Both the position numbers and the translations under genes were made by a program. The notes beneath the pieces are model-generated. The model saw only the letters and a list, made by a program, of their open reading frames with translations, made no database searches and was not told the origin of the DNA. Source: Candidatus Dormibacteria bacterium (GTDB lineage: Bacteria > Chloroflexota > Dormibacteria > Aeolococcales > Aeolococcaceae). From it: a stretch of 33,793 bases of DNA. The stretch is taken from the NCBI GenBank assembly GCA_046263035.1, contig JBHELP010000127.1, positions 1 to 33,793 on the forward strand, written 5' to 3'. This document shows positions 6,087 through 22,058 of this stretch, in pieces (positions within the stretch are counted from its first letter, which is position 1; the number at the start of each line of letters is the position of its first letter).

Positions 6087-7442
6087 ATGAGTACCACAGA
6101 GGCCACCGTGGAGAGCGGCCAGGATCGCGGCACGGGGGCGAGGCTGTTTCCGCCAGATTTTCTCCTCGGCTGTGCCAGTGCCGCGCACCAGGTGGAGGGC
6201 GGGATCGACAACGACTGGAGCCGCTGGGAGCGCGAGGACCCGGCGCGGATAAGGGACGGAAACATCTCCGGTTTGGCCTGCGACCATTACCGACGGTACA
6301 GGGAGGATCTGGAGGTGCTGGCCGCACTCCATCAGAACGCCCACCGCTTCTCCGTCGAATGGGCAAGGGTGGAGCCTGAGGAGGGTCGCTTCGACTCGTC
6401 GGCGCTGGATCACTACGCCGACGTTGTGGCCACCTGCCGCCGGCTTGGGATGGAGCCGATCGTCACCCTGCATCACTTCACGCTTCCCCCCTGGCTGGCC
6501 GCCCGTGGCGGCGTGCTGGCGCGCGACGCACCGCGGCTGTTCGCCCGCTTCGCCGCCTCCTGCGTGGAAGCCTTTGGAGCCCAGGTCACCTGGTGGATCA
6601 CCATCAATGAGCCCACCGTCCTCGCGGTGATGGCCTACCTCGAGGGCAAGTGGCCCCCCGGTGAGCGCTCCATGGTGCGGACCCTGCGTGCCCTTGGAAG
6701 CCTTGTCCGGATGCACGCCGCCGCGGCTCGAGCGGTGCGCCGCACCGCCATGAGCAACCACGGCCGGCGGGTGATGATCTCGATCGCACACCATGAGCGG
6801 CGGCTGCGCCCCGGGACAGCGTCACACCTGGAGCGTCTGGTGGCCGTGCCGGCGGACGTCCTTTTCAACAGGTGGTTCCTGCGGATGTGTATGAGTGGGC
6901 GCCTCCTGCCTCCGGTGGGCAGTGGCCGCACGGTCCCCGGGCTGGCCGGCTCGCTGGATTACGTGGGCCTCAACCACTACTGCGACGAGATGACCACCTT
7001 CGACCGCCGGGCATGGGGGACCTTGTTCGCCCGTATCTCGCCGCTCCCCGGCCTCCCCACGTCAACCTATGGGTGGGCCATCGAGCCCGACGGGATGAGG
7101 CGCGCCCTGGAAGCCCTGTGGCAGGAGTTCCACCTTCCCATCATGATCACGGAAAACGGCGTGGCGGATACCGACGACGAGCTCAGGCCCTCGTTCCTGA
7201 TCGGTTATCTCACCGCCGTGCAGGAGGCCATGGAGCGCGGGGTGGAGGTGCGTGGCTACCTGCACTGGACATCCATGGACAATTTCGAGTGGGCGGAGGG
7301 CTACGCGCAGCGGTTCGGCCTCTTCGCGGTCGACAGGGAGACCATGGAGAGGCGCCGGAAGCCCAGCGCCGACCTCTATGCCGAGATCTGCCGCACCCGC
7401 CTCGTTCCCGCCGCCGTACCCGCGAACGCCTCTTCAGTCTGA
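6087..7442 (+). CDS. Glycoside hydrolase family 1 (beta-glucosidase-like)
   Basis: FPPDFLLGCASAAHQVEG, RFSVEWARVEP, TINEP acid/base, ITENG nucleophile, DNFEWAEG. Confidence 0.93.
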   Translation: MSTTEATVESGQDRGTGARLFPPDFLLGCASAAHQVEGGIDNDWSRWEREDPARIRDGNISGLACDHYRRYREDLEVLAALHQNAHRFSVEWARVEPEEGRFDSSALDHYADVVATCRRLGMEPIVTLHHFTLPPWLAARGGVLARDAPRLFARFAASCVEAFGAQVTWWITINEPTVLAVMAYLEGKWPPGERSMVRTLRALGSLVRMHAAAARAVRRTAMSNHGRRVMISIAHHERRLRPGTASHLERLVAVPADVLFNRWFLRMCMSGRLLPPVGSGRTVPGLAGSLDYVGLNHYCDEMTTFDRRAWGTLFARISPLPGLPTSTYGWAIEPDGMRRALEALWQEFHLPIMITENGVADTDDELRPSFLIGYLTAVQEAMERGVEVRGYLHWTSMDNFEWAEGYAQRFGLFAVDRETMERRRKPSADLYAEICRTRLVPAAVPANASSV

Positions 7443-7618
7443 CACCCAACTGGGGCTCTCGGGTCAGGCGCGCCTCGTTGCCGCCGTCGTAGGCGGGTAC
7501 GACGACGCTTCGGTCTGACGGTGAGCTGCTTCTTTCGGGCGCCGAGCACGACGCTGAGGCCAAACCCGAGCGCGAGCGGCGGCAGCCCTGGCACAATGGC
7601 TCGCGAAACAGCCGGAGT

Positions 7619-7635
7619 TTGTGCTGTTTGCCCAT
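7619..7635 (+). promoter_or_regulatory. Putative PucR-type box TTGTG-N7-CCCAT upstream of the GS-alpha/pucR operon
   Basis: TTGTGCTGTTTGCCCAT just upstream of the RBS; an extra CACAA half-site at 7592-7596. Confidence 0.35.
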
Positions 7636-7657
7636 ATGACTGGCGGTGGAGGATCCG

Positions 7658-9007
7658 ATGGCTGGACGGAGCAGGACAGAGGCGGTGACCCCGGATGACC
7701 TGGTGCGGCAGGCGGAGGCGGCGGGGGTCCGCTATGTGGATCTGCAGTTCACCGACGTGGTGGGATCCGTCAAGACTGTGACCATCCCGGCCGCCGAGCT
7801 CGGCGCGGCCGTCGAACACGGCACCTGGTTCGACGGCTCCTCGGTGGAATCGCTGGCACGGACGGCGGAGAGCGACATGTACCTGGTGCCGGACCCGGGG
7901 ACCTTCCAGGTGCTGCCCTGGGCGGCCCCGGCCCGCACCGCCCGACTCGTCTGCCGGGTCACCACACCCGACGGCGAGCCCTACCCCGGCGATCCCCGTG
8001 CCGCCCTCGTTCGTGCGGTGGATGGGGCGGCCAGGCTGGGATTCGACTACCGCTGCGGACCAGAGGTCGAGTTCTTTCTTCTAGAGAGGGGCGAGGGAGG
8101 CGTCGTGGCCCCCCTTCCGCACGACCACGACGGATACTTCGATTTCTCGACGGACCGTAGCGCCCGCGTGCGGCAGGCCATGGTCACCGCCCTGCAGGAT
8201 CTGGGTATCGGCGTCAACACGGTGCACCACGAGATCGCCGCCGGTCAGCATGAGATCGACTTCGCCCACGCCCCGGCGCTCAGGTCCGCCGACGATGTGA
8301 TCACCTTCCGATACACGCTGCGGGCCGTGGCGCAGCAGGCCGGCGTCATCGCCAGCTTCATGCCCAAGCCGTTTCATGGCGTGAGTGGAAGCGGGATGCA
8401 CGTGCATCAGAGCCTGGTTCATCGGGATGGAGGCAATGCCTTCCACAGCGGCGCTGACGAATATGGGCTGAGCGACCTGGCACGTCACTTCATCGCCGGC
8501 CAGCTCCATCACGCTGCGGGCATGTGCCTGGTGCTGGCACCGCTGGTCAACTCGTACAAGCGGCTGGTGCGCGGCTTCGAGGCGCCGGTGTTCGTCTCCT
8601 GGGCCCGGACCAACCGTGGTGCCCTGGTCCGTGTGCCCCATGTGGGCCGGCGCGAGGCCACCCGTGTGGAGCTGCGCAGCCCCGATCCATCATGCAATCC
8701 CTACCTGGCCTTTGCAGTGATGCTGCGCTGCGGCCTTGATGGGATCGAGCGGCGGCTACCCCTCCCCGCGGCGGTGGAGGAATCCCTCTACGGCTTCGAC
8801 GACGTGGAGCTCGAGCGGCGCAATGTTGGCGTGCTTCCCGACAATCTCAAGGACGCCATCGCCGCCTTCCGAGCCGACGAGGTCGTGCGTGACGCCCTCG
8901 GGGACCACCTGGCGGAGCGATTCCTCGAGGCCAAGCTGCTCGAGTGGCGGGATTATCGGGCCCAGGTGACGCCCTGGGAGTTGGAGCAGTATCTGGAGCG
9001 GGCGTGA
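7658..9007 (+). CDS. glnA: Glutamine synthetase family protein, GSI-alpha-like
   Basis: GGAGG 7648-7652 then ATG 7658; FDGSS..ESDM, GPEVEFF, HHEIAAGQHEIDF, FMPKP..GSGMH, NSYKRL.GFEAP, RVELRSPDP; lacks the GSI-beta insertion. Confidence 0.85.
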   Translation: MAGRSRTEAVTPDDLVRQAEAAGVRYVDLQFTDVVGSVKTVTIPAAELGAAVEHGTWFDGSSVESLARTAESDMYLVPDPGTFQVLPWAAPARTARLVCRVTTPDGEPYPGDPRAALVRAVDGAARLGFDYRCGPEVEFFLLERGEGGVVAPLPHDHDGYFDFSTDRSARVRQAMVTALQDLGIGVNTVHHEIAAGQHEIDFAHAPALRSADDVITFRYTLRAVAQQAGVIASFMPKPFHGVSGSGMHVHQSLVHRDGGNAFHSGADEYGLSDLARHFIAGQLHHAAGMCLVLAPLVNSYKRLVRGFEAPVFVSWARTNRGALVRVPHVGRREATRVELRSPDPSCNPYLAFAVMLRCGLDGIERRLPLPAAVEESLYGFDDVELERRNVGVLPDNLKDAIAAFRADEVVRDALGDHLAERFLEAKLLEWRDYRAQVTPWELEQYLERA

Positions 9008-10638
9008 GCACCTCGTTGATCACCGTCAAGGACGTGTGGAGAGGCAGCCTACCCCCGGCCACGGAGCTGCTCGGGGGCGGCGAGGGCCTCGATCGCCGGG
9101 TCGAGTGGGCGACGGCCCTGCGGACACGGCCTCCGGCCTTCGATGCCATCAAGGGCGGTGAGCTGGCCTTCGTCCCGGTCAAGAGCATCCGTCTGCTTGA
9201 TGACCGTCTCGATCTCGCTCAGGTGATGACCAGCCTGGCCGAGAAGGGCGGGGTGGCGGTGGCGGTGGTCGGAGACGTCTCGCCACAGAGCCTCGAGGTC
9301 GCCGAGCGGCTGAGCCTGCCCCTGCTCCGCCTGCCCGCCTCCGTTCACGTCGCCGACGTGCAGCAGACCACCGTCCGCTTCATCCTCGAGCAGAGGACCC
9401 TTTTGCACGAGCGCGAGCAGACCCTGCACCGGCGGCTCATGGAGCTGGCCCTGTCGGGTGCCGGACCGGCGGCCATAGTCGATGAGGTCTCGAGAGCGGT
9501 CGGCGCGGTGGCGGCCTGGCAGGATGAAGATGGCTCGCTACGTCATCTCACCGACGCCGATGAGGTGCTGGGCCGGTGCCTGGCCGCCGACATGACGGAG
9601 GTCCGCGGCTGGAGCAGCCGGGTCGCTCTGACGGCGGCAGACCCCCCGGTGCGTGAATTCTCCCTCCTCCAGCTCTCCGACCGGAAGCGACTGGTGTCGC
9701 CGATCCCGGTCCGCGACGACATCGGCGGTTACCTGAGCATCGTCGGGCCCCAGGCCCATCTCGGTCATCTCGTCCGGCTGGCATGTGCCCGAGCAGCATC
9801 CGCATGTGCCATCGAGCTCGATCGCGAGCGGGCCGTGCTCAAGGCCAGGGATGACCTCGAGGGGGAGTTTCTCGACTCCCTTTTGACCGGGACCTTCTCG
9901 TCGGAGGAGGCGGTGCAGGAACGAGGCCGCCGGCTGGGATTCGATCTCGGGGGGCACGTCACGGTGCTGGCGGCGCGGGACGACAGCGCCATCGGGCAGC
10001 CGTGGGAGGAGGCGGCCCTCCATGCCGCCCGGGGATGGGTCCGCCGCCGAGCCTCGGCGGCCCTGGTGACCCTGCATCAGGGCGCCGTCTGCGCCATCAT
10101 TCCCTCGCCTGCCGATGGTCACGGCATGGTGGGGAGGCTGGCCCACGACCTCCGGTTGGAATGCGCTCAGGCGGCCGGCCGGCCGGGCCTCTCGGTCGGC
10201 GTGGGTCGGCCCAAGCCGGGTGTCACCGGTGTGCGCGCCTCCCATCGCGAGGCTGAGCAGGCGCTGACCCTGGGTCACCGCCTCTTCGGCGGCGGCCGGG
10301 TCCTGGATTTCGCTGATCTCGGTCTGCATCGGCTGCTCTTCGCACTCACCCAGCATGCCGAGCTCCTCGAGTTCCATGGCGACAACGTGGGGGGTCTGGA
10401 GGCCTACGACGAGCGCACAGGAGGGGCGCTGATGAAGACCCTGGACGCCTACTTCGCCTGCCACGGATCGCCCACCGAGATGGCGGAGCGCCTCCATCTG
10501 CACCGCAACACGGTCCTGTACCGGCTGGGACGGATCGAGGAGATCGGCCGTCTCAGCCTCAACGACCCGGCCACCCGACTAAACCTCCACCTCTGTCTGC
10601 GTGTTGGTGAGGTGATCCAGGCCGCCGGCCGCCCCTGA
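9004..10638 (+). CDS. PucR/CdaR-family transcriptional regulator
   Basis: GTGA overlap with the GS stop; N-terminal PucR domain (LLGGGEGLDRRVEW, GGEL), central GAF-like and GGDEF-like regions, C-terminal HTH AERLHLHRNTVLYRL. Confidence 0.92.
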   Translation: MSTSLITVKDVWRGSLPPATELLGGGEGLDRRVEWATALRTRPPAFDAIKGGELAFVPVKSIRLLDDRLDLAQVMTSLAEKGGVAVAVVGDVSPQSLEVAERLSLPLLRLPASVHVADVQQTTVRFILEQRTLLHEREQTLHRRLMELALSGAGPAAIVDEVSRAVGAVAAWQDEDGSLRHLTDADEVLGRCLAADMTEVRGWSSRVALTAADPPVREFSLLQLSDRKRLVSPIPVRDDIGGYLSIVGPQAHLGHLVRLACARAASACAIELDRERAVLKARDDLEGEFLDSLLTGTFSSEEAVQERGRRLGFDLGGHVTVLAARDDSAIGQPWEEAALHAARGWVRRRASAALVTLHQGAVCAIIPSPADGHGMVGRLAHDLRLECAQAAGRPGLSVGVGRPKPGVTGVRASHREAEQALTLGHRLFGGGRVLDFADLGLHRLLFALTQHAELLEFHGDNVGGLEAYDERTGGALMKTLDAYFACHGSPTEMAERLHLHRNTVLYRLGRIEEIGRLSLNDPATRLNLHLCLRVGEVIQAAGRP

Positions 10639-10661
10639 TCCGGGAGCGTCACCGCTGGTAC

Positions 10662-10740
10662 TTGGACTCGGCGCACAAGCTATGCGTTTGGGCTTTCGTG
10701 CGGAGCTGATCTGGCGGCCCTATCCATGCACCGCTACGCT
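10662..10740 (+). promoter_or_regulatory. Putative amtB-glnK promoter: box TTGGA-N7-CACAA (10662-10678), TCGTG half-site (10696), -10 TACGCT (10735-10740)
   Basis: 17-bp imperfect inverted repeat resembling PucR-family operators; same geometry as the glnA upstream region. Confidence 0.5.
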
Positions 10741-10794
10741 TGCCGCAGCCGGTGTTCCGCCGGCATCCACGTCTCGACCTTGAGGAGGAGCTCG

Positions 10795-12264
10795 GTGCAT
10801 CGAACAACCCGAATCAGGCTGGCACTGCTGCTGCCGGCCATGGCAGCCGTCCTACCCGTGACCGCCCTGGCCGCCGACGACAAGACCGCGAGCCAGGCCG
10901 CCGGTATTGCCGCCGACACGGTGTGGGTGGTCGTCGCCGGGCTCCTGGTCCTTTTCATGCAGGCCTGATTCGCCATGCTCGAGGTGGGTTTCACCCGCAT
11001 GAAGAACGTGGGCACGGTGGTGGCCAAGATCGTGGTCAACCTGAGCGTGGCCTCGGTCGTGTACTGGGCCGTGGGCTTCGGCATAGCCTTCGGCGCCGCC
11101 GACGCCAGCCTCTTTCACTTCATCGGCTGGAGCGGCTTCGCGCCCAGCTTCAGCCCCGGCTCCGCGCTGGATCTGCCGGCGCTGTCGGCGTCCACCGTCC
11201 CCGCCGCGGCGAAGTTCTTCTTCGAGTTCGTCTTCTGCGCCGTCTCCCTGGCCATTGTCTGGGGAACGATGCTGGAGCGCACCAAGTTCAGCGTCTACAT
11301 CCTCTTCGCGATTCCCTTCTGCGCCTTCATCTACCCGCTGATCAGCCATCAGCTCTTCGGCGGTGGCTGGCTGACATCGGCGGTGCACGCTCAGGACTTC
11401 GCGGGCTCAACGGTCGTCCACCTGACCGGTGCGACGGCCGGATTCGCAGGATTGCTTCTGCTCGGTCCCCGCATCGGCAAGTACGGCGCCGACAAGCGGC
11501 CCAACGCCATTCCAGGGCACAGCATGCCGCTGGCCCAGCTCGGTGTGATCATCCTCTGGTTCGGCTGGTTCGGCTTCAATCCCGGGTCGACCCTCAATGC
11601 CACCAACCTGCACTTCGCCGACGTGGTCGTCACCACCAACCTCGCCGCGGCCGCCGGCGCTCTTGCTGCTATGGGCGCCATCTACATGATGCAGCGCACC
11701 CTGGATGTCGGCATGATCGGCAACGGGGCCATCGCCGCGCTGGTGGCCATAACCGCCCCCTCCGGCTATGTGCAGCCGTGGGCCGCTCTGATAATCGGCG
11801 CGGTCGCCGGGATCATCGTGGTCTTTGGGGTGCTCGCCATCGACAAGTTGATAGACGATCCCATCGGCGCGCTCAGCGCTCACGGCCTGGCGGGGATCTG
11901 GGGCACGCTCTCCTGCGGGCTGTTCACCGACCCCCAATTCGCCACCCTCAACGGCATCGGCGACGGCGGGCTCTTCTACACGGGAAACCTCACCCAGCTC
12001 GGTCGTCAGGCGGTCGCGGTTGGGGCCAGCTTCGTCACCGTCTTCGTGCTCTCATTCCTGCTCTTCTGGGTGATCAAGCGGGTTGTCGGGCTTCGCGTCA
12101 GCCAGCGCGATGAGCTCGAGGGCCTGGACATCAGCGAGCACGGCATGTGGGGCTACCCCGAGCAGTTCATGCCCGTTCCCGGCGGGGCCTACATCCATCC
12201 CGACGCCATTGCCGAACCAGCACGCCGAACGGCCACCGCCGTCACCCCGGAGTACCGGGCATGA
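10795..12264 (+). pseudogene. amtB: Ammonium transporter Amt interrupted by one in-frame TGA at 10966-10968
   Basis: GAGGAGGAG RBS then GTG 10795; reads LVLFMQA*FAMLEVGFTR where the family has FMQAGFAMLE; DFAGSTVVH, WFGWFGFNPGS, DDP..SAHG and GLDISEHG intact. Confidence 0.85.
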
Positions 12265-12629
12265 AGAAGGTGGAGGCGATCATCCGGCCGGAGAGCCTGC
12301 AGGCTGTGCAGGACGCGCTCGACGTCCTCGGAGCTTCGGGGCTGACGGTCACCGAGGTTCACGGTTGCGGCACTCAGCGTGGCTACACCGAGACCTACAG
12401 GGGCGCCCGCGCCAACATCTCGCTCAAGCGCAAGGTCAAGATCGAGGCCGTGGTCGCCGACCCCGCCGTGGAGGGTGTTGTCGAGGCAATCTCCCGGGCG
12501 GCCAAGACGGGTGAGGTGGGCGACGGCAAGATCTTCGTCCTTCCCGTCGACGACGCGGTCCGCATCCGCACTGGGGAGCATGGCGAGGAGGTCGTCCGGC
12601 ACGTCGCCCCGGAGCATTGGGGGCATTAG
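12261..12629 (+). CDS. glnK: P-II family nitrogen regulator (GlnK/GlnB)
   Basis: MKKVEAIIRP, GCGTQRG..YRG, TGEVGDGKIFV, RIRTGE; ATGA overlap with amt. Confidence 0.93.
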   Translation: MKKVEAIIRPESLQAVQDALDVLGASGLTVTEVHGCGTQRGYTETYRGARANISLKRKVKIEAVVADPAVEGVVEAISRAAKTGEVGDGKIFVLPVDDAVRIRTGEHGEEVVRHVAPEHWGH

Positions 12630-12639
12630 CAGGCGGCTC

Positions 12640-12820
12640 ATCCCAGCACCGGCATCCTCCTCTTGGCAGGGGCGGGTCCCAGCGTGGGCCCGCCCCTGGA
12701 CCGGCACCCTCCTCCTGGCAACGGGTAGGGGCGGCCCCATGCGGGGACCGCCCCTGGACCGGCATCCTCCTCCTGGCACGGGCCCCCCGTCCCTGGACCC
12801 GCCCCTACCCGTGCCCTGGC
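12640..12820 (+). ncRNA. Candidate structured sRNA / 3'UTR element with three anti-SD (CCUCCUC) loops
   Basis: CCGG/YTGG stems close CAYCCTCCTC loops using G-U pairs possible only on the + strand; ends are approximate. Confidence 0.5.
12648..12778 (+). repeat. Three 21-nt direct repeats ACCGGCAYCCTCCTCYTGGCA separated by GC-rich hairpins
   Basis: Copies at 12648-12668, 12700-12720, 12758-12778; spacers of 31 and 37 nt both contain GGGGCGG...CCGCCCC stems. Confidence 0.9.
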
Positions 12821-12904
12821 CGGTTGTCCCCCGGCGGATAGATGGCTGCGCCCTGGCATGTGTCGCTCTCTGGTTTCCACGAGCGTTGGTAGACTCGGTG
12901 TGCG

Positions 12905-13207
12905 ATGACCTACACCGTCACCGAACCCTGCATCGACCTCAAGGACAAGTCATGCATCGACGTGTGTCCGGTCGACTGCATTCATGAGGCTGAGGAGGAC
13001 CGTATGGTCTTCATCGATCCAGAGGAGTGCATCGACTGCGGGGCATGTGTCGACCCCTGTCCGGTCGACGCCATCTTCGCCGAGGAGGACGTGCCGGCGG
13101 AGCAGGCACCGTTCGTCGAGATCAACAAGCAGTATTTCACCGACCGTGAGACAGCTCGGGAGAAGGTCATGAGCCTCAAGCCACCACCCGAGGTGCCGGT
13201 CGCCTGA
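12905..13207 (+). CDS. Ferredoxin, 7Fe ([3Fe-4S]+[4Fe-4S]) type
   Basis: [26 protein letters not shown] and [17 protein letters not shown]; extended -10-like TGGTAGACT at 12887-12895. Confidence 0.93.
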
Positions 13208-13217
13208 GCCGTCGCGT

Positions 13218-13297
13218 TTGTGCACCGGGTACAGGACGGCCGGGCGCGCTGTCGTCTCCCGGGCCCATGGAGGGCCGACCGCCGTACGCGCTAACCT
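13218..13297 (+). promoter_or_regulatory. Putative glnA promoter: box TTGTG-N7-TACAG (13218-13234), second box TCGTC-N7-CCCAT (13252-13268), -10 TAACCT (13292-13297)
   Basis: Box1-box2 offset 34 nt and box1 to -10 offset 74 nt, versus 34 and 73 nt upstream of amtB. Confidence 0.5.
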
Positions 13298-13410
13298 ATG
13301 CTGCCTCGGCCTGCTTCCGCAGTGGGCGTCACGTCATCAGCGTGAGCCCACTGTGGTCGAGCCACCCATCCCCCAGTCAGAGGCCGGAACGGCGTCGGTG
13401 AGGAGTACCA

Positions 13411-14904
13411 ATGGCAATCGATGAATCCGTAGCTGCCAAAGGGTCAATCGAGGTATCGACCATGTCACAGTCGACCAGCAAGGCTGCGCCGTCCCCGCGG
13501 GATGTCATCTCCCGGGCGGAGAACCACGGGGTCAAGATGGTCGACTTCCGCTTCACGGACCTGCCCGGCTCGTGGCAGCACTTCAGCATCCCCATAGAGG
13601 AGCTCAAGGAGTCGGTGTTCTCGGAGGGTATCGGTTTCGACGGCTCGAGCATCCGCGGCTTTCAGAAGATCCACGAGAGCGACATGCTTCTCTTCCCCGA
13701 CGCGGCGCGGGCCTTCCTGGATCCCTGCCTGGAGGTGCCCACGCTCGCCATCGTCTGTGACATCAGGGACCCGCTCACCCTCAAGCCCTACAGCCGGGAT
13801 CCCCGCTTCGTGGCCCGCAAGGCGGAGGAGTACCTCCGGTCCACCGGCGTGGCCGACACCTCCTACTGGGGTCCGGAGGTTGAGTTCTACATCTTCAACT
13901 CGATCCGGTTCGACCAGAACAGCCACGAGGGCTACTACTTCATCGACTCCGAGGAGGGCGTCTGGAACAGCGGCCAGAACACCGGTCCCAACCTGGGATT
14001 CCGCCCCCGGCACAAGGAGGGCTACTTTCCCGTCCCCCCCGTCGACAAGCAGCAGGACCTTCGCAGCCGCATCGTCCTCGACCTCATCGCGGCGGGGATC
14101 GACATCGAGGTCCACCACCACGAGGTGGGCACTGCCGGTCAGGCGGAGATCGACATGCGCTTCGACACCATGGTCACCATGGCGGACAAGGTGCTCATGT
14201 ACAAGTACATAGTCCGCAACGTCTGCTATCGCCATGGCTACACGGCGACCTTCATGCCCAAGCCACTCTTCGGTGACAACGGCAGCGGCATGCACACCCA
14301 CCAGTCGCTCTGGAAGGACGGCACCCCCCTCTTCTATGACAAGGAGGGATACGCGCTGCTCAGCGACACGGCTCGCTGGTACATCGGTGGACTCCTCGCC
14401 CATGCCCCGGCGGTGCTGGCCTTCGCTGCGCCCACCACCAACAGCTACCGTCGCCTCGTCCCCGGCTATGAGGCGCCCATAAAGCTTGCCTACAGCGCCC
14501 GGAACCGGAGCGCCTGCGTCCGGATCCCGACCTACAGTAACTCGCCGGCCGCCCGCCGGCTCGAGTTCCGCTCACCGGATCCCATGTGCAACCCCTATTA
14601 CGCCTTCTCGGCCATGTTGATGGCGGGCCTCGATGGTATCGCCAACAAGATCGAGCCGCAGAAGCCCATCGAGGCCGACCTCTACGAGCTTGAGGGCGAC
14701 GAGGCGACCGCCGTGAGGGATCTTCCGGGTTCGCTGCCGGAGGTGCTTGACGCGCTGGAGCGCGATCACGCCTTCCTCCTCCAGGGCGGTGTGTTCACCG
14801 AGGACGTCATCGAGACCTGGATTCAGTACAAGCGCGAGCGAGAGGTCGATCCCATAGCCCTGAGGCCCCACCCTCACGAGTTCCACCTCTACTACGATGC
14901 CTAG
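13411..14904 (+). CDS. glnA: Glutamine synthetase type I (GSI-beta)
   Basis: [17 protein letters not shown], beta insertion ([11 protein letters not shown]), [36 protein letters not shown], adenylylation-type DLYEL; alternative ATG at 13462. Confidence 0.96.
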
Positions 14905-17445: not shown

Positions 17446-17823
17446 TCAGCCCAGCCCGATGATCACGGCCAGCAGCCAGACTGCGCCAACCGGGATGAGG
17501 ACGGCAAAGGGCACGACCGCAAAGACCACGAACGAGAAGACCAGCTGCTCATCGGGTACCCGCTCCGGATGCCGCTCCCTGGTCCTCAGGTCGAGGACGT
17601 ACCACAGCAGTCCTCCGGCGATAAACCCGGCGAGCAGTATGAGGATGCCGGCGAGGGCGCCGGCCACGCCGATCCGCTGCGGGCCACGGGTGAGGCGCCA
17701 GCCAGCCCCTGCCGTGAGTGACAGGAGTCCGCAGGAGACGAACCGCAGCAGCACCCCGGTCACCGAGCCCGCCGGTCGGCGTCTCGGGGCGCCGGTCCCC
17801 TTCCGGAATGACCGGTCAGGCAT
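17446..17823 (-). CDS. Hypothetical membrane protein (about 3 TM)
   Basis: TGATG overlap with the upstream ATPase; three hydrophobic stretches; fills the gap to dxs. Confidence 0.6.
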   Translation of the reverse strand: MPDRSFRKGTGAPRRRPAGSVTGVLLRFVSCGLLSLTAGAGWRLTRGPQRIGVAGALAGILILLAGFIAGGLLWYVLDLRTRERHPERVPDEQLVFSFVVFAVVPFAVLIPVGAVWLLAVIIGLG

Positions 17824-20681
17824 CAGCCGTGAGTATGAACGCCAACCTCGACGGGTGCTGCGGATGGATTGCGGGGTGCGCCCTCCAGCCTGGCCACCGA
17901 GCAGCTCTCACCGAGACGCTGCTGCACATGCTCGGCGACCGAGGCGTCACTCGTGGTCATCACCACCTGGTGAGACTCGGAAAGGGCCGCGATGAAGTCC
18001 AGGGCATTCCCCGTGCGGCCGCTGTCAGCAGTCAGCAGAGGCTCATCGAGAAGGAGCGGAACGGCCTCCCCGCCGCCCGCGAGCAGCTCGCTGATGCCCA
18101 ACCTCAGTAGCAGCGACACCTGATCCCTGGTGCCCCTGGAAACCAGCTCGAGGGGAACGAGCTCGCACCGCTGGTTGCTGAAGAGTGAGACGGCGAAATG
18201 CTCCGTGTCGACGTTGACCCTTCGGTATCGACCGTCGGTGATGAGGCACAGACGCTGCGCCACCGATTGGGCGAGGCGTGGAGCCAGGTCACGGTGGACG
18301 TACCGGGCGGCCTGCTCGATGAGGGTGATAGCCCGTTCCAGGGCGGCCAGCTGGCTCAGGCCCCGTTCGCGAGCCGCTGCACATGAGGCCCGTTCGTCGG
18401 CAAGGGCCGCGACGTTGGGCAGGGAATCAATGGCACCACCCAGACGAGCCCGGAGCACGGCCGCCTCGCCGGCTGCCGACGCGGCCACCCTGCGGGCATG
18501 CGTGGCCTCCCTCTCCAGCACGTCCAGGCGGGCCCCCTGGAGCGGTACGGCAGCGGCGACAGCCGAGGCATCGACACCGCGCTCGCGCAATTCCTGGGTG
18601 AAACCCTCTGCCCGACGGCCCAGTGACTGCTCATCAGAGCCAATGGCCTCGATGCGGCGTCGCACCTCACTCAGACGGGTCCGTGCCTCGTCGTGACGCC
18701 TGCGCCCCTCGCAGCCGGCGCGGAATGCTGCCAGTGCTTCGCTGCTGCTCATGCCGTCGGGAAGACCGGCGCCGGTGAAGATCCGGCGCAGGCGCTCCTC
18801 GATCTCGTGCACATCTGCGGCCCGCCGAGTGGCCTCCTCCATGATCATGACGGTCGCCGACTCCTCGCGGGTGAGCACCTCATCCTCATGGTTCAGCTGA
18901 TCCCAGCAGAGGCGCCTCTCGACCGCCTCTCGCACGGCCGCCAGCGAGGCCCGAGCTCGGTTCGTGTACTCCTCCACACTTCTCGGCTCCCCGGCAGCCT
19001 GGTTCCATGGCGGAGCGTTGATTCCCAGCTTCTCGACGACCTCCGCGCATGCCAGGGAGAGCTCGGCGGCACGACCTCTGGCGGACTCGATGTCACATCG
19101 GTGGGCTTCCACGAGGATCTCCAGCCGTCGCAGTTCCTCCTGGAGCCGCTGCAGCATGGGCAGCCGGCTGGCGGCAATCTCCAAGCCCTGATCGCTGGCA
19201 TCCAGTCCCGGAAAACGGCGGCCGAGCTCCCGGCGGGCGCGCCTCCCATCAGCCCCGATCAACAGGGCGACGGCGCCGACGACGGCTGCGGCAGCGGTCC
19301 CAACGCTGATCGCGAGCGGGGCGGCCCCGCTATGACCACTCATCTGCACCGCCAGTCCCACGGCGAGCGTCAAGGCCATGACGAGAACGGCCGCGTAGAT
19401 CGAACGGCTACGTCGGCGTGGTGCCATCGCCCGCTGAAAAAGGTGGACGATGGAATCGGTCGAGGCTGCCGGCACGCTGCCGAGACCGGTGGCGGCGACC
19501 TGGCGCCGCAGCTGGTCGCAGCAGGCCTCCGCTCGCTTCATCTCGCCGACGCGGCGCGCGACTGATCCCTCGGCGGCCAAGGCCTTCTCCAGCGAGCGGG
19601 CCTCGTCGAGGGCGGGGGCATCGAGTGAGATGGGCGTCCCCAGCGCCTCGAGCAGGAGAGCCACCTCAGCCCGTCGGGTCCGAGTGCTGTGCAGCGTTGG
19701 GGCGGCGGCGTCGGCTCTGGACCGAGCCTCTCCGGCCACGGCCTCCGCCTGGTGGAGCTCACCCCCCAGAGCGATCACACGATCCTCGTCGTCGAGTGGG
19801 AAGTTGGCGTAGGGCCTAGTACTCTCCATCCTGCTCTCCAGCTCGGTCGACTCCCGGGTGGCCTCCGCCAGGTGGGAACGGTCTACGGCAATCTGGGCCA
19901 GCCTTCCCAGGAGCCAGGCGCGCTCACATTCCAGGCTGTGCTCCGCCGCCTGAGTGGAGGCGCTCTCCAGGTCCACCAGGCGCGCCTCGTCCGACGCAAT
20001 GGCGGCCTCACGCCGCCGGCTCGCCGCGATCTCCAAATCCAGCTGTCGCATCCGGGCGGTCGCCACACCCAGCGGGGTTGCGGAACGGCGCTCCGACCCT
20101 ATCCTCGCCATTGCTTCGCGAAGGCGGCCAACCGCGCCGGCGGCGGTGACCCCGCGTCCGGTATCGGCAAGCCTTTCCAGGGCCTCCTGAAGGCGCGCAG
20201 CCACCAGCCGCCGGCCGGGCGCGTCGGGGGAGGTGGCCAGGAGCCCGTCATCGCCAAGCCATGCCGTGGCGCAGAACACGGCTTCGTCAATGCCCAGGTG
20301 GACCTGACCGGGCGCCACCAAGCGACCGATCCGCATGTCGGCCGTGACATCACGACCTCCGATCTCCTGCACTTGAGCCGTCTGACCGCGTTGATCCAGC
20401 CGGCGGGCGACCCGGAACCGTGATCCGTCGTTCAGGGTATACGACAGCGCCACCCCGTAGGCGCCGGCGGTCCAGGGCATCCACCGATTCCATGGGCTCC
20501 GTTCAACGGCACGCCCCTGCCCTCCCGCGTCGAGCCCGTAGAGGGAGGCGCGAACCGCTCTATGGATGGTGGATTTCCCGGACTCGTTGCCGCCCACGAT
20601 GACCGTGAGACGCGGGGAGAAGTCGATCGCCATCCCGCGCAGCCGGCCGAAGCCGGCGATGTCCAGCCTCTCGAGCCTCAT
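17823..20681 (-). CDS. SMC/Rad50-like ATPase, YhaN (AAA_27) type
   Basis: MRLERLDIAGFG, Walker A GGNESGKST, long coiled coil with two central hydrophobic helices, signature VSRGTRDQ, Walker B LLLDEP. Confidence 0.87.
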   Translation of the reverse strand: MRLERLDIAGFGRLRGMAIDFSPRLTVIVGGNESGKSTIHRAVRASLYGLDAGGQGRAVERSPWNRWMPWTAGAYGVALSYTLNDGSRFRVARRLDQRGQTAQVQEIGGRDVTADMRIGRLVAPGQVHLGIDEAVFCATAWLGDDGLLATSPDAPGRRLVAARLQEALERLADTGRGVTAAGAVGRLREAMARIGSERRSATPLGVATARMRQLDLEIAASRRREAAIASDEARLVDLESASTQAAEHSLECERAWLLGRLAQIAVDRSHLAEATRESTELESRMESTRPYANFPLDDEDRVIALGGELHQAEAVAGEARSRADAAAPTLHSTRTRRAEVALLLEALGTPISLDAPALDEARSLEKALAAEGSVARRVGEMKRAEACCDQLRRQVAATGLGSVPAASTDSIVHLFQRAMAPRRRSRSIYAAVLVMALTLAVGLAVQMSGHSGAAPLAISVGTAAAAVVGAVALLIGADGRRARRELGRRFPGLDASDQGLEIAASRLPMLQRLQEELRRLEILVEAHRCDIESARGRAAELSLACAEVVEKLGINAPPWNQAAGEPRSVEEYTNRARASLAAVREAVERRLCWDQLNHEDEVLTREESATVMIMEEATRRAADVHEIEERLRRIFTGAGLPDGMSSSEALAAFRAGCEGRRRHDEARTRLSEVRRRIEAIGSDEQSLGRRAEGFTQELRERGVDASAVAAAVPLQGARLDVLEREATHARRVAASAAGEAAVLRARLGGAIDSLPNVAALADERASCAAARERGLSQLAALERAITLIEQAARYVHRDLAPRLAQSVAQRLCLITDGRYRRVNVDTEHFAVSLFSNQRCELVPLELVSRGTRDQVSLLLRLGISELLAGGGEAVPLLLDEPLLTADSGRTGNALDFIAALSESHQVVMTTSDASVAEHVQQRLGESCSVARLEGAPRNPSAAPVEVGVHTHG

Positions 20682-21832
20682 CGCAGGCCCACCTCGACGC
20701 CGCTGAGGGCCTGGAGCCCATACCGCAGGGCGTCCTCGAGAACGGCCGCTTCCGCGGCATCCCCCCGGGTCTCGGCGATGGCGGCCAGTGTGTTGCGCGC
20801 GAAGGAACCTCGCGCGGTGCGTTCGGCGGCGGTGGTGGCGACGTCGAGGTCGGTGCGCGTCATATCTCGGACTCGCACGGCGGCCATGGCGGTCGCGTCC
20901 CTCAGGGCGGACTCCAGGCTGTAGACATCTGGCGCCAGGCCGCAGGGGACCTCACCGCTGAGCTCCACTCCGGCGATGGTGCGTTCAGGGTCCATCCCGG
21001 CCGTCCCGGCCAGGGTCGCGGCGATGGCCCGGTCGGCCACCGCGGTGAGCCCGGTGGCACCGCCGAGGTCGCAGTCGATCCTCACCGCCGACCAGGTATT
21101 GAGGCTGAGCGTCTCGAAGTGGATCATCCCTCCAGGGGTGATCTCGACGATCACCGGACCTCGGCCACCACCGTCCTCATAGCTGAGGGGCTCGGGCGTC
21201 CCTGGGTACAGAAGGCCGGTACCCTCGTCGAGGCGACGGCGATGATAGTGACCGCTCAGCGCCGCCGTGAAGCCGCGCTCATGAATATGCTCGGCGCGGA
21301 ACGGCCCGTGCACGGACTTTCCCGCGGGCCGGGATCCCATCTCGGCTCCGTGAAAAAGAGCCAGATGGACACCGCCCGCGGATTGCGGTCCCGGCCCCGC
21401 CAGCGGATCGCCCTGCCAGGACGGCTGCTCATGCCCCAGCCCCCACAGCGTGAGTCCGTCATCCAACTCCAGGGGTGTCAGCGTCGGCGTTTGGAAGACC
21501 CGGACATTGGCGGGCCATTCGGTGCGGGCATACAGGGACTCGGGCAGCATGGGATCGTGATTCCCGGGCGCCAAGGCGACCAGAAGGGGTTGCCAGGCGG
21601 CGAACGTCTCGGCCAGAAAGTTGCCTGTATCCGCCCCAGCACGGTCGTGCTCATAGAGGTCACCCCCCACGGTGACGGCCCCACAGCCTCGTGCTCGGGC
21701 AACATCACCCGCCCTGCGCAGAGCATCACGCAATCCCTGGCGACGCCGTCGCGAGCCCTCGCCGTTGGAACCCATACCGGCGAAAGCCCTCTCGAGGTGC
21801 AGATCGGCGAGATGCAGGATTCGGTAGCTCAC
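20678..21832 (-). CDS. Mre11/SbcD-like metallophosphoesterase nuclease (YhaO type)
   Basis: GTG 21832; HLADLH, GGDLYE, PGNHD, FHG, GHYH, YPGTPE; ATGA overlap with the ATPase. Confidence 0.88.
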   Translation of the reverse strand: MSYRILHLADLHLERAFAGMGSNGEGSRRRRQGLRDALRRAGDVARARGCGAVTVGGDLYEHDRAGADTGNFLAETFAAWQPLLVALAPGNHDPMLPESLYARTEWPANVRVFQTPTLTPLELDDGLTLWGLGHEQPSWQGDPLAGPGPQSAGGVHLALFHGAEMGSRPAGKSVHGPFRAEHIHERGFTAALSGHYHRRRLDEGTGLLYPGTPEPLSYEDGGGRGPVIVEITPGGMIHFETLSLNTWSAVRIDCDLGGATGLTAVADRAIAATLAGTAGMDPERTIAGVELSGEVPCGLAPDVYSLESALRDATAMAAVRVRDMTRTDLDVATTAAERTARGSFARNTLAAIAETRGDAAEAAVLEDALRYGLQALSGVEVGLR

Positions 21833-22058
21833 GGCGGTGACATGTCTGGTAGGGTGGCCTCCGGCGAACGTCAGTTCGCCAGAGGCTATCACATGGCTGT
21901 GGTCCCCGCAAGATCGTGGCCGGGCTGTGTCGTGGTCCCAGCGATCCCGGTGCGGGCTTCCGTCGCCCGGGAAGGGGCCGGAGTCCCGTGGGCTGCCGTC
22001 GCGCGAGGCCGGGGCGCTCACGAACGTCGGACTAAAGGTTGTAGACTCGTACTATTCG

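Follow-up and report, generated by a model that had tools for sequence, protein, structure and literature searches.

Gene organisation of the window

The subject of this study is a 33,793-nucleotide stretch of DNA (the window), namely contig C127 (JBHELP010000127.1) of a 1.91-Mb metagenome-assembled genome (MAG) of a Candidatus Dormibacteria bacterium, which comprises 255 contigs and is 83% complete. The window carries a gene for a PucR-family transcription factor among genes for ammonium uptake and assimilation, and 17-bp palindromic boxes are found upstream of these genes. A preliminary description of this DNA had proposed that the PucR-type protein is the nitrogen activator of the bacterium and that it regulates its own operon. 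The comparative analyses described below support this proposal, and we regard a PucR-type activator of ammonium assimilation with autoregulation as the probable reading of the locus (roughly 0.8), its binding and activating roles being predicted from sequence.

The genes in question lie on the plus strand. The first of them (7658-9007; GSa below) encodes a type I-alpha glutamine synthetase (GS; GSI-alpha for this type) with the Pfam domains Gln-synt_N and Gln-synt_C; its score against TIGR00653 (453.9 bits) exceeds the cut-off of 429. The protein aligns over its full length with solved Gram-positive and archaeal GS (E = 2e-131), the Gram-positive ones being presumably those crystallised with GlnR. 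ATG 7658 is the likely start codon, preceded by the Shine-Dalgarno sequence GGAGGA (7648-7653), with GTG 7646 as the alternative. The regulator gene (9004-10638) begins with a GTG that overlaps the stop codon of GSa. Its product combines the PucR N-terminal domain (PF07905; 48.7 bits, cut-off 33.5), a GGDEF-like domain (PF17853; 68.8 bits, cut-off 24.5) and, at the C-terminus, the helix-turn-helix (HTH) domain HTH_30 (PF13556; 79.4 bits, cut-off 27), and thus belongs to the PucR family. It reaches no named NCBIfam equivalog, scoring 49 bits against AdeR (cut-off 700), 47 against CdaR/SdaR (612), 35.5 against Rv1453 (600) and 23.2 against PmfR (800). Among solved structures, the C-terminal part of Rv2242 (E = 5e-6) is the single relative, and the full-length structural look-alikes in a protein atlas are PucR-family clusters, which tell nothing beyond family membership.

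Downstream of the regulator gene are amtB (10795-12264; Amt family by Pfam), glnK encoding a PII protein (12261-12629; Pfam P-II and synteny), a gene for an FdxA-like ferredoxin (fdx, 12905-13207; identified by library searches; a conserved neighbour upstream of glnA) and glnA (13411-14904), which encodes a GSI-beta type glutamine synthetase (Pfam; TIGR00653, 646.8 bits). The gene layout agrees with the preliminary description, apart from the start of amtB, which we place at GTG 10795 rather than at ATG 10975, the N-terminal signal peptide and first helix being shared with 13 relatives; a second box upstream of GSa (7535-7551) has to be added.

Palindromic boxes and putative promoter elements in the window

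The three boxes noted earlier begin at 7619, 10662 and 13218, as can be read directly from the sequence. They are weak copies of a palindrome, TTGTGC-N5-GCACAA, that is conserved in relatives; no strand is assigned to them. The amtB box TTGGACTCGGCGCACAA (10662-10678; 16.4 bits) is followed, 34 nt after its start and near -50, by a second conserved, half-site-like element TTCGTGCG (10695-10702, plus strand), with TCGT at 10696 (+34 from the box start), and at +73 by a putative -10 hexamer of amtB-glnK, TACGCT (10735-10740, plus strand). The glnA box TTGTGCACCGGGTACAG (13218-13234; 12.4 bits) is followed by glnA-specific elements at about -52 to -33 (13252-13270, plus strand), namely TCGT at 13252 (+34) and GCCCATGG at 13263-13270, and at +74 by a putative -10, TAACCT (13292-13297, plus strand). 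The spacings of TCGT and of the TAnnnT -10 reported earlier are thereby confirmed. If the -10 hexamer is assumed to span -12 to -7, the boxes are centred near -77 (amtB) and -78 (glnA), the same estimate as before. The search for sigma-70-like -35/-10 pairs in 7400-13450 gave none, with 0.5 expected.

The operon of GSa and the regulator gene differs in carrying two boxes. The distal box TCGGGCGCCGAGCACGA (7535-7551; three mismatches) is centred at about -61 and is followed by a putative -10, CACAAT (7592-7597, plus strand), the latter aligning with TAGAAT, TACCAT or TACACT in relatives. The proximal box TTGTGCTGTTTGCCCAT (7619-7635) falls in the predicted 5' leader, just 5' of the ribosome-binding site and 23 nt upstream of the likely GSa start codon.

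The pattern TTGTGCNNNNNGCACAA with at most two mismatches gave four matches in the window, against 0.69 expected, and a count of four was reached in one of 100 shuffles; the matches are the three noted boxes and one at 13999 inside glnA. Further scans relied on a weight matrix that was trained on relatives, with 24 sites at amtB and glnA from 13 genomes and none from the window. Across the whole 1.91-Mb genome the matrix gave six matches of at least 12 bits, among which the amtB box ranks second and the glnA box sixth. These two are the sole noncoding sites; the other four are intragenic (within genes for an E1 beta subunit, an AAA ATPase and an amidase, and at the end of a gene for an epimerase).

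Conservation of the boxes and their geometry in relatives

Orthologs of the regulator, with 53-66% identity, are present in 21 of 24 genomes of the same family, and the order GSa-pucR-(amtB-glnK)-fdx-glnA is preserved across 20 loci. In these loci the palindrome (at most two mismatches) lies upstream of amtB in 14/14 cases and of glnA in 12/12 (seven of them perfect), and upstream of fdx in 0/18; it is also the dominant conserved block in a MAFFT alignment of 12 fdx-glnA spacers. Some of the genomes are flagged as unpublished (G002, G027, G032, G036, G077, G207 and G259). They enter tallies only, namely the 24-genome ortholog count, the counts for 41 relatives and 301 genomes given below and, for G002 (locus L033), the 20-locus family footprinting, and no claim is based on one of them alone.

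We then considered a wider set of 80 Candidatus Dormibacterota loci plus the window, in which an upstream region was scored on condition that its flanking genes had been detected. The public loci closest to the window all come from MAGs labelled Candidatus Dormibacterota or Dormibacteria, or in some cases Chloroflexi or Chloroflexota. GSa lies directly 5' of the regulator gene in 80 of the 81 loci, the remaining locus beginning at a contig end. All 61 glnA upstream regions contain a box of at least 12 bits, and in 54 of them it scores 20 bits or more; for amtB and GSa the 12-bit threshold is reached in 31/33 and 51/72 regions, respectively. None of the 107 control upstream regions had such a box (fdx 0/68, GH1 glycosidase gene 0/35, dxs 0/4); by this test the ferredoxin gene is outside the regulon. 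Counted from the start of the box, the TAnnnT motif begins at +72 to +74 in 60/61 glnA and 27/31 amtB promoters, or 87/92 together. The boxes reported in the preliminary description are thus kept in orthologous promoters at a fixed spacing. What the computation shows directly is the motif, how well it is conserved, its constant geometry and its joint occurrence with the regulator gene, to which we return below.

The two promoter classes differ in detail. Perfect half-sites occur in 41 of 61 glnA boxes and in five of 31 amtB boxes. The second element generally follows at +33 to +41; that of amtB promoters is TT.GTGCG-like, with GTGC or GTGG at +33 to +42 in 25/31, and that of glnA promoters is TCG[GT] in 45/61. 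The glnA promoters further have GtCCATaG at +45 to +52 (CCAT[AG]G in 57/61). The resulting block TCGG-N7-GtCCATaG, seen in loci L066-L145, is absent from amtB promoters and contains a small dyad, GGACT...AGTCC, in many genomes; it may serve as a further operator, or else as an atypical -35 region.

Upstream of the GSa/pucR operon, the relatives also have two boxes. Of the 40 loci in which both score 7 bits or more, 27 have them 85 nt apart, and spacings of 64, 84, 86 and 95-97 nt are also seen. The proximal box reaches 7 bits in 57 of 72 relatives and has the form of a conserved weaker variant, TTGTGCGCnCCGCCCnAG. A -10-like TAGAAT or TACCAT is located about 18-21 nt 5' of the proximal box, and this position would place the distal box near -61 to -65.

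Over the 1.10 Mb of sequence scanned with the matrix, 167 of 196 matches fall within the glnA, amtB and GSa promoter classes; of the other 29, no fewer than 14 also belong to promoters of amtB or glnA, which our region definitions did not cover. Additional boxes, scoring 15-23 bits, are found some 100 nt upstream of a gene for a second Amt-family transporter (L093:10723, L142:10815) and of one for an APC-type amino-acid permease (L135:11971, L127:12004, L130:12012). These two genes are likely further regulon members in some genera.

Loss of the box together with the regulator

No ortholog of the regulator was found in two genomes of the same family, G006 (98% complete) and G021 (92%), and in two of the sister family, G037 and G029. 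All four retain fdx-glnA and have no box there, the best scores being -1.8, 8.0 (inside a coding sequence), -3.1 and 5.5, respectively; each shows one GS match, and G006 and G021 show no amtB match. Four of five further genomes of the same class that lack a close homolog likewise have no box, so that the box is missing from eight of the nine genomes altogether.

Another genome of the same family, G012 (85% complete, GC 0.59), has neither an ortholog nor a glnA match, yet carries two perfect palindromes. One of them (C15:13312-13328; L051:3013) lies in a 31-bp extended palindrome before an RDD-family gene and the other (C117:452-468; L052) near an RHS-repeat gene. We considered a wider regulon in the family of the window on the basis of off-locus matches with at most one mismatch in five relatives and G012, and rejected it: the matches are located at genes for a sugar transferase, RpoB, AurF-like, RDD or RHS proteins or are intragenic, and their counts resemble those of a reversed-pattern control. 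A box before gltB was found in none of five same-family genomes.

In a sister family that lacks the ortholog, a different, shorter PucR-family paralog stands beside glnA in G104 (C53:6876-8159) and G068 (C32:62484-63836), and one stands 2.8 kb from glnA in G138 (C89:175-1428). These paralogs have 26-32% identity to the window protein and align only from residue 85-123 onwards. PucR-type control of glnA may exist in more than one form within the class.

Distant lineages of the phylum

Among 301 sampled genomes of the phylum, as defined by the genome tool, a homolog with an E-value of 1e-60 or better is found in 73 and a perfect palindrome in 98. Of 20 homolog loci from other families, 13 have the box beside the regulator gene, in varied gene orders: GSa then pucR (L147), pucR then GSa (L156, L164, L165), nadE then pucR followed by amtB or glnA (L146, L149), and pucR alone (L148, L150-153, L155, L157). 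The distant homologs with a box before their own gene have 35-46% identity to the window protein. The six lowest-scoring homologs (L158-L163), which have no nitrogen gene nearby, lack the box, and L154 has a weak box only. At L146 (6714-8444) and L149 (5271-7001), which represent two other families, a gene for a glutamine-dependent NAD synthetase (CN_hydrolase and NAD_synthase domains) replaces the GSI-alpha gene beside the regulator, and the box lies immediately upstream of it.

Boxes at nitrogen genes are also found away from the regulator. In G225 and G056 the best genome-wide match, of 23.5 and 22.7 bits respectively, is found some 100 nt upstream of an operon of glnA and GSa that is distant from the regulator gene. 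In G290, a complete genome, all three perfect sites are at nitrogen genes, namely gltB (330 nt upstream), the amtB locus and glnA; a 19.3-bit site lies 180 nt before amtB and a 14-bit site before a formamidase gene.

Family f13 appeared at first to be a counter-example, as it has a perfect box in 15/15 genomes, yet no match to the window protein. The case was resolved by a short HTH_30 regulator of 342-350 residues beside the box in all five genomes examined, in each of which it is the only protein above the HTH_30 cut-off. Its stop codon lies 5-9 nt before the perfect box, some 100 nt beyond which there is a GSI-alpha gene, and amtB is preceded by another box; Rfam finds no RNA family at the f13 box. 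The f13 regulator and the window protein share the HTH region alone, including HRNTVLYRL, which points to the HTH_30 domain as the common denominator of the box-bearing loci. Taken across the differing gene orders, the box accompanies a PucR/HTH_30 gene in 11 families.

Other features of the window

The amtB gene of the window has an in-frame TGA at 10966-10968, where 13/13 aligned relatives have a glycine codon; the protein reads LFMQA*FAMLEVGF at this point, as against LFMQAGFAMLEVGF in relatives. The TGA may be a genuine nonsense mutation, may vary within the population or may stem from misassembly. A restart of translation at ATG 10975 is possible and would cost the protein its signal peptide and first helix. 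We rejected recoding of TGA, as the flag for a TGA inside orthologs turned out to be a true stop codon in L023 and to correspond to no stop in range in L032.

A GH1 beta-glycosidase gene (6087-7442, plus strand) precedes the GSa-pucR operon in the window and is a kept neighbour in about half of the 81 loci. On the minus strand, 17823-22021 encodes a Rad50/SbcC-like ATPase (952 amino acids) paired with an SbcD-like nuclease (447 amino acids), and not the glnE/glnA2 that the actinobacterial layout might suggest.

Other nitrogen regulators and alternative explanations

We searched for other nitrogen regulators in 41 relatives, comprising the 24 same-family genomes, 16 of the sister family and the genome of the window (completeness 74-98%, 24 of them at 90% or more). 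Sigma-54 (PF04552) was found in 0/41, with a positive control in four known genomes, which speaks against NtrC/sigma-54 control; NrpR (PF01995) was found in 0/41, with a positive control in two methanogens, and NtcA (TIGR03697) above its cut-off in 0/41. Of the competing regulators named in the preliminary description, sigma-54/NtrC, NrpR and NtcA were thus not detected in these 41 relatives; an OmpR-type GlnR may still exist. A MerR-type TnrA/GlnR is not indicated by the operator (TGT-N9-ACA) or by the neighbour of GSa, which is PucR-type, no genome-wide search for a MerR-type GlnR having been made. GlnE above the cut-off is found in 0/41 relatives and GlnD in 1/41. PII (glnK) and GSI-beta are nonetheless present, and PII uridylylation and GS adenylylation of the enterobacterial style seem not to operate here.

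Several observations weigh against a PucR-type activator as we read it. The genomes that trained the matrix probably recur among the 80 loci, so the promoter counts are partly circular, and the genomes of this set are kin, so the counts are not independent trials. The sites of the window itself are the weakest of their class, the glnA box being the weakest of 61 orthologous boxes (the minimum of 12.4 bits), and the amtB of the window carries a stop codon. As for OmpR-family proteins, G000 has three and G011 has 11; none reaches an NCBIfam equivalog cut-off, in a library without a GlnR-specific model. In G104, where no close homolog is found (the best match has E = 3e-48 and 31% identity), a 12.8-bit site is nonetheless present, 197 nt upstream of the point at which the glnA match begins to align; this genome has the other PucR-family paralog beside glnA. 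Across the 301 genomes, perfect palindromes and close homologs are not one-to-one: family f18 has the box in 8/12 genomes and a homolog in 0/12, and family f15 has homologs in 18/18 and a perfect box in 3/18, where two loci suggest that the f15 homologs are paralogs. The reversed-pattern control also matches many of the 301 genomes. The recognition helix region HRNT(V/L)LYRL is identical in paralogs that have no box nearby, and the protein sequence therefore does not single out box specificity. Finally, the word 'global' is too strong for the regulon in the family of the window.

The shared helix, together with the G104 site, would also suit a different arrangement, in which the palindrome is the true operator of another factor, CRP/FNR-like or otherwise, and the PucR gene is a local regulator or a bystander. 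TGTG...CACA indeed resembles CRP-type half-sites. Operators of the NtcA/CRP type are GTA-N8-TAC or TGTGA-N6-TCACA, however, and the GTG-N7-CAC of the box is one base shorter than this geometry. NtcA above its cut-off was found in none of the 41 relatives, as noted, and the weak CRP-family matches seen in 12 of 24 same-family genomes are missing from five that bear the box (G000, G010, G011, G013 and G020). As the box moves with the PucR/HTH_30 gene over 11 families and is lost with the regulator in eight of nine genomes, another binder is highly unlikely. Still less can be said for the suggestion, made in the preliminary description as a caveat, that the 13218 box is an RNA hairpin only, serving as terminator or attenuator after the ferredoxin gene. 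A palindrome can fold, and GCCGTC/GACGGC arms flank this box in the window, but they are not kept in 11 aligned relatives. Across relatives the half-sites are invariant instead of covarying and the spacer is variable, which, with the unconserved flanking stem, argues for a protein site rather than an RNA stem. There is no T-run, no terminator-like site was called at any box in 7400-13450, and the same motif occurs before amtB, before GSa and, in other lineages, before a glnA without fdx. The hairpin explanation can practically be discounted.

A further alternative accepts the PucR-family protein as the binder and changes the sign: it would mainly repress, or act in a dual manner, at amtB and glnA, for example by looping between -77 and -50. 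The sign of regulation is not readable from sequence, the proximal box of the regulator's own operon is in a repressor position, and B. subtilis PucR has both roles according to PMC7652997. At amtB and glnA, on the other hand, the strong site lies upstream of the core promoter at a fixed -77, a -35 consensus is neither conserved nor detected, and the characterised relatives of the same layout are activators according to PMC7652997 and PMC13599513. We consider repression or dual control at these promoters unlikely, and a PucR-type activator remains our preferred reading.

Comparison with known regulatory systems

The site of B. subtilis PutR is said to be TTGTGG-N5-CCACAA near -76; it would have the same 6-N5-6 geometry and nearly the same half-site as the box described here. 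According to PMC7652997 and PMC13599513, most PucR-type regulators are activators, with binding sites in the form of inverted repeats upstream of -35; inverted repeats are the sites of PutR (17 bp), AdeR (24 bp), GabR (two 21-bp repeats) and MabR. PMC13198045 names PutR without giving a site. PutR/PrcR, the activator of putBCP, is of the same family and domain set as the window regulator, and its 17-bp inverted-repeat operator (PMC7652997) resembles the window box. It is a local, proline-responsive regulator of a catabolic operon, whereas the targets here are GS, Amt and PII. The published 24-bp site of Rhodococcus IppR contains ATGCG-N5-CGCAT, a 5-N5-5 palindrome that also resembles the window box, and the octameric GabR of Corynebacterium glutamicum binds two repeats just 5' of -35, more tightly with both sites present (PMC7652997, PMC13599513). 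The two-repeat layout of GabR and the palindrome of IppR fit the strong site and weaker downstream element seen here. Unlike the window regulator, GabR lacks the GGDEF-like domain, and both GabR and IppR control single catabolic clusters. B. subtilis PucR, by comparison, both activates and represses (PMC7652997).

The glnRA system of Bacillus offers a functional parallel. There, too, the regulator is co-transcribed with GSI-alpha in an autoregulated operon with a palindromic operator, and the GlnR/TnrA regulon likewise contains GS and an ammonium transporter together with PII, to which some lineages add glutamate synthase. In contrast to the PucR-type regulator of the window, GlnR and TnrA are small and of the MerR type. 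The GlnR/TnrA box is TGTNA-N7-TNACA, of 17 bp, that is TGT-N11-ACA as against TGT-N9-ACA here. In Bacillus, contact with GS is known to control the regulator; here such control is hypothetical. NtrC/sigma-54, OmpR-type GlnR, AmtR, NtcA and NrpR act on the same core targets (glnA, amtB-glnK and sometimes gltB) and belong to other protein families with other operators. In literature searches, whose sources were accessible in part, we found no paper that ties the control of glnA or amtB to a PucR-family regulator, or nitrogen regulation in Dormibacterota or Chloroflexi to a protein of this type.

Proposed mechanism and implications

We propose that the PucR-family protein would bind TTGTGC-N5-GCACAA through its C-terminal HTH_30 domain, as a dimer or a larger oligomer. 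At amtB-glnK and glnA, it would occupy the palindrome near -77; this is followed by a weaker element near -50 that resembles a half-site and by a -10 for which no -35 can be recognised. A strong upstream site combined with a -10 that lacks a -35 is an activator-dependent layout, and the most likely role of the regulator is to turn on ammonium uptake and the synthesis of glutamine. In its own operon, the distal site near -61 to -65 and the weaker site in the 5' leader would allow activation that is capped by autorepression, the proximal box at 7619-7635 being the candidate autorepression site; the autoregulation proposed earlier is consistent with these two boxes. The binder, the sign of regulation and the signal are what we infer in this scheme. 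In the family of the window, the regulon would be small, consisting of both GS genes, amtB-glnK and the regulator, joined in some genera by the second Amt and the amino-acid permease; in one distant lineage it would also cover gltB. This would be a new role for, and a new subfamily of, a known regulator family, in an uncultured lineage.

It is attractive to speculate further that an HTH_30/PucR-type protein is the master nitrogen regulator of a deep lineage, consisting of Dormibacteria and several families of the same phylum by the genome tool, and that it is set by contact with a co-transcribed glutamine-handling enzyme, which would be GSI-alpha or, in some lineages, the glutamine-dependent NAD synthetase. 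We hold this wider idea to be possible, if fairly unlikely. If it is the case, the Bacillus GS-TnrA/GlnR circuit would have a convergent counterpart, assembled around a regulator of an unrelated family in organisms without GlnD, GlnE and sigma-54.

Candidatus Dormibacterota and their relatives are abundant in soils and permafrost and have no cultured members among the records examined. The prediction made here is concrete in that it specifies a single protein, a single 17-bp site, a small regulon and three promoters, whose transcripts are predicted to start near 7604, 10747 and 13304 and to be induced under ammonium limitation. The motif could be used to read the nitrogen status of these organisms from metatranscriptomes, and the pairing of the regulator with GSI-alpha, together with the absence of GlnE and the single GlnD among the 41 relatives, raises the question of how nitrogen status is sensed. 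The regulators of ammonium assimilation are diverse, including NtrC, TnrA/GlnR, OmpR-type GlnR, AmtR, NtcA and NrpR. If our reading is correct, a PucR-family protein would be an additional, independently evolved solution for nitrogen control.

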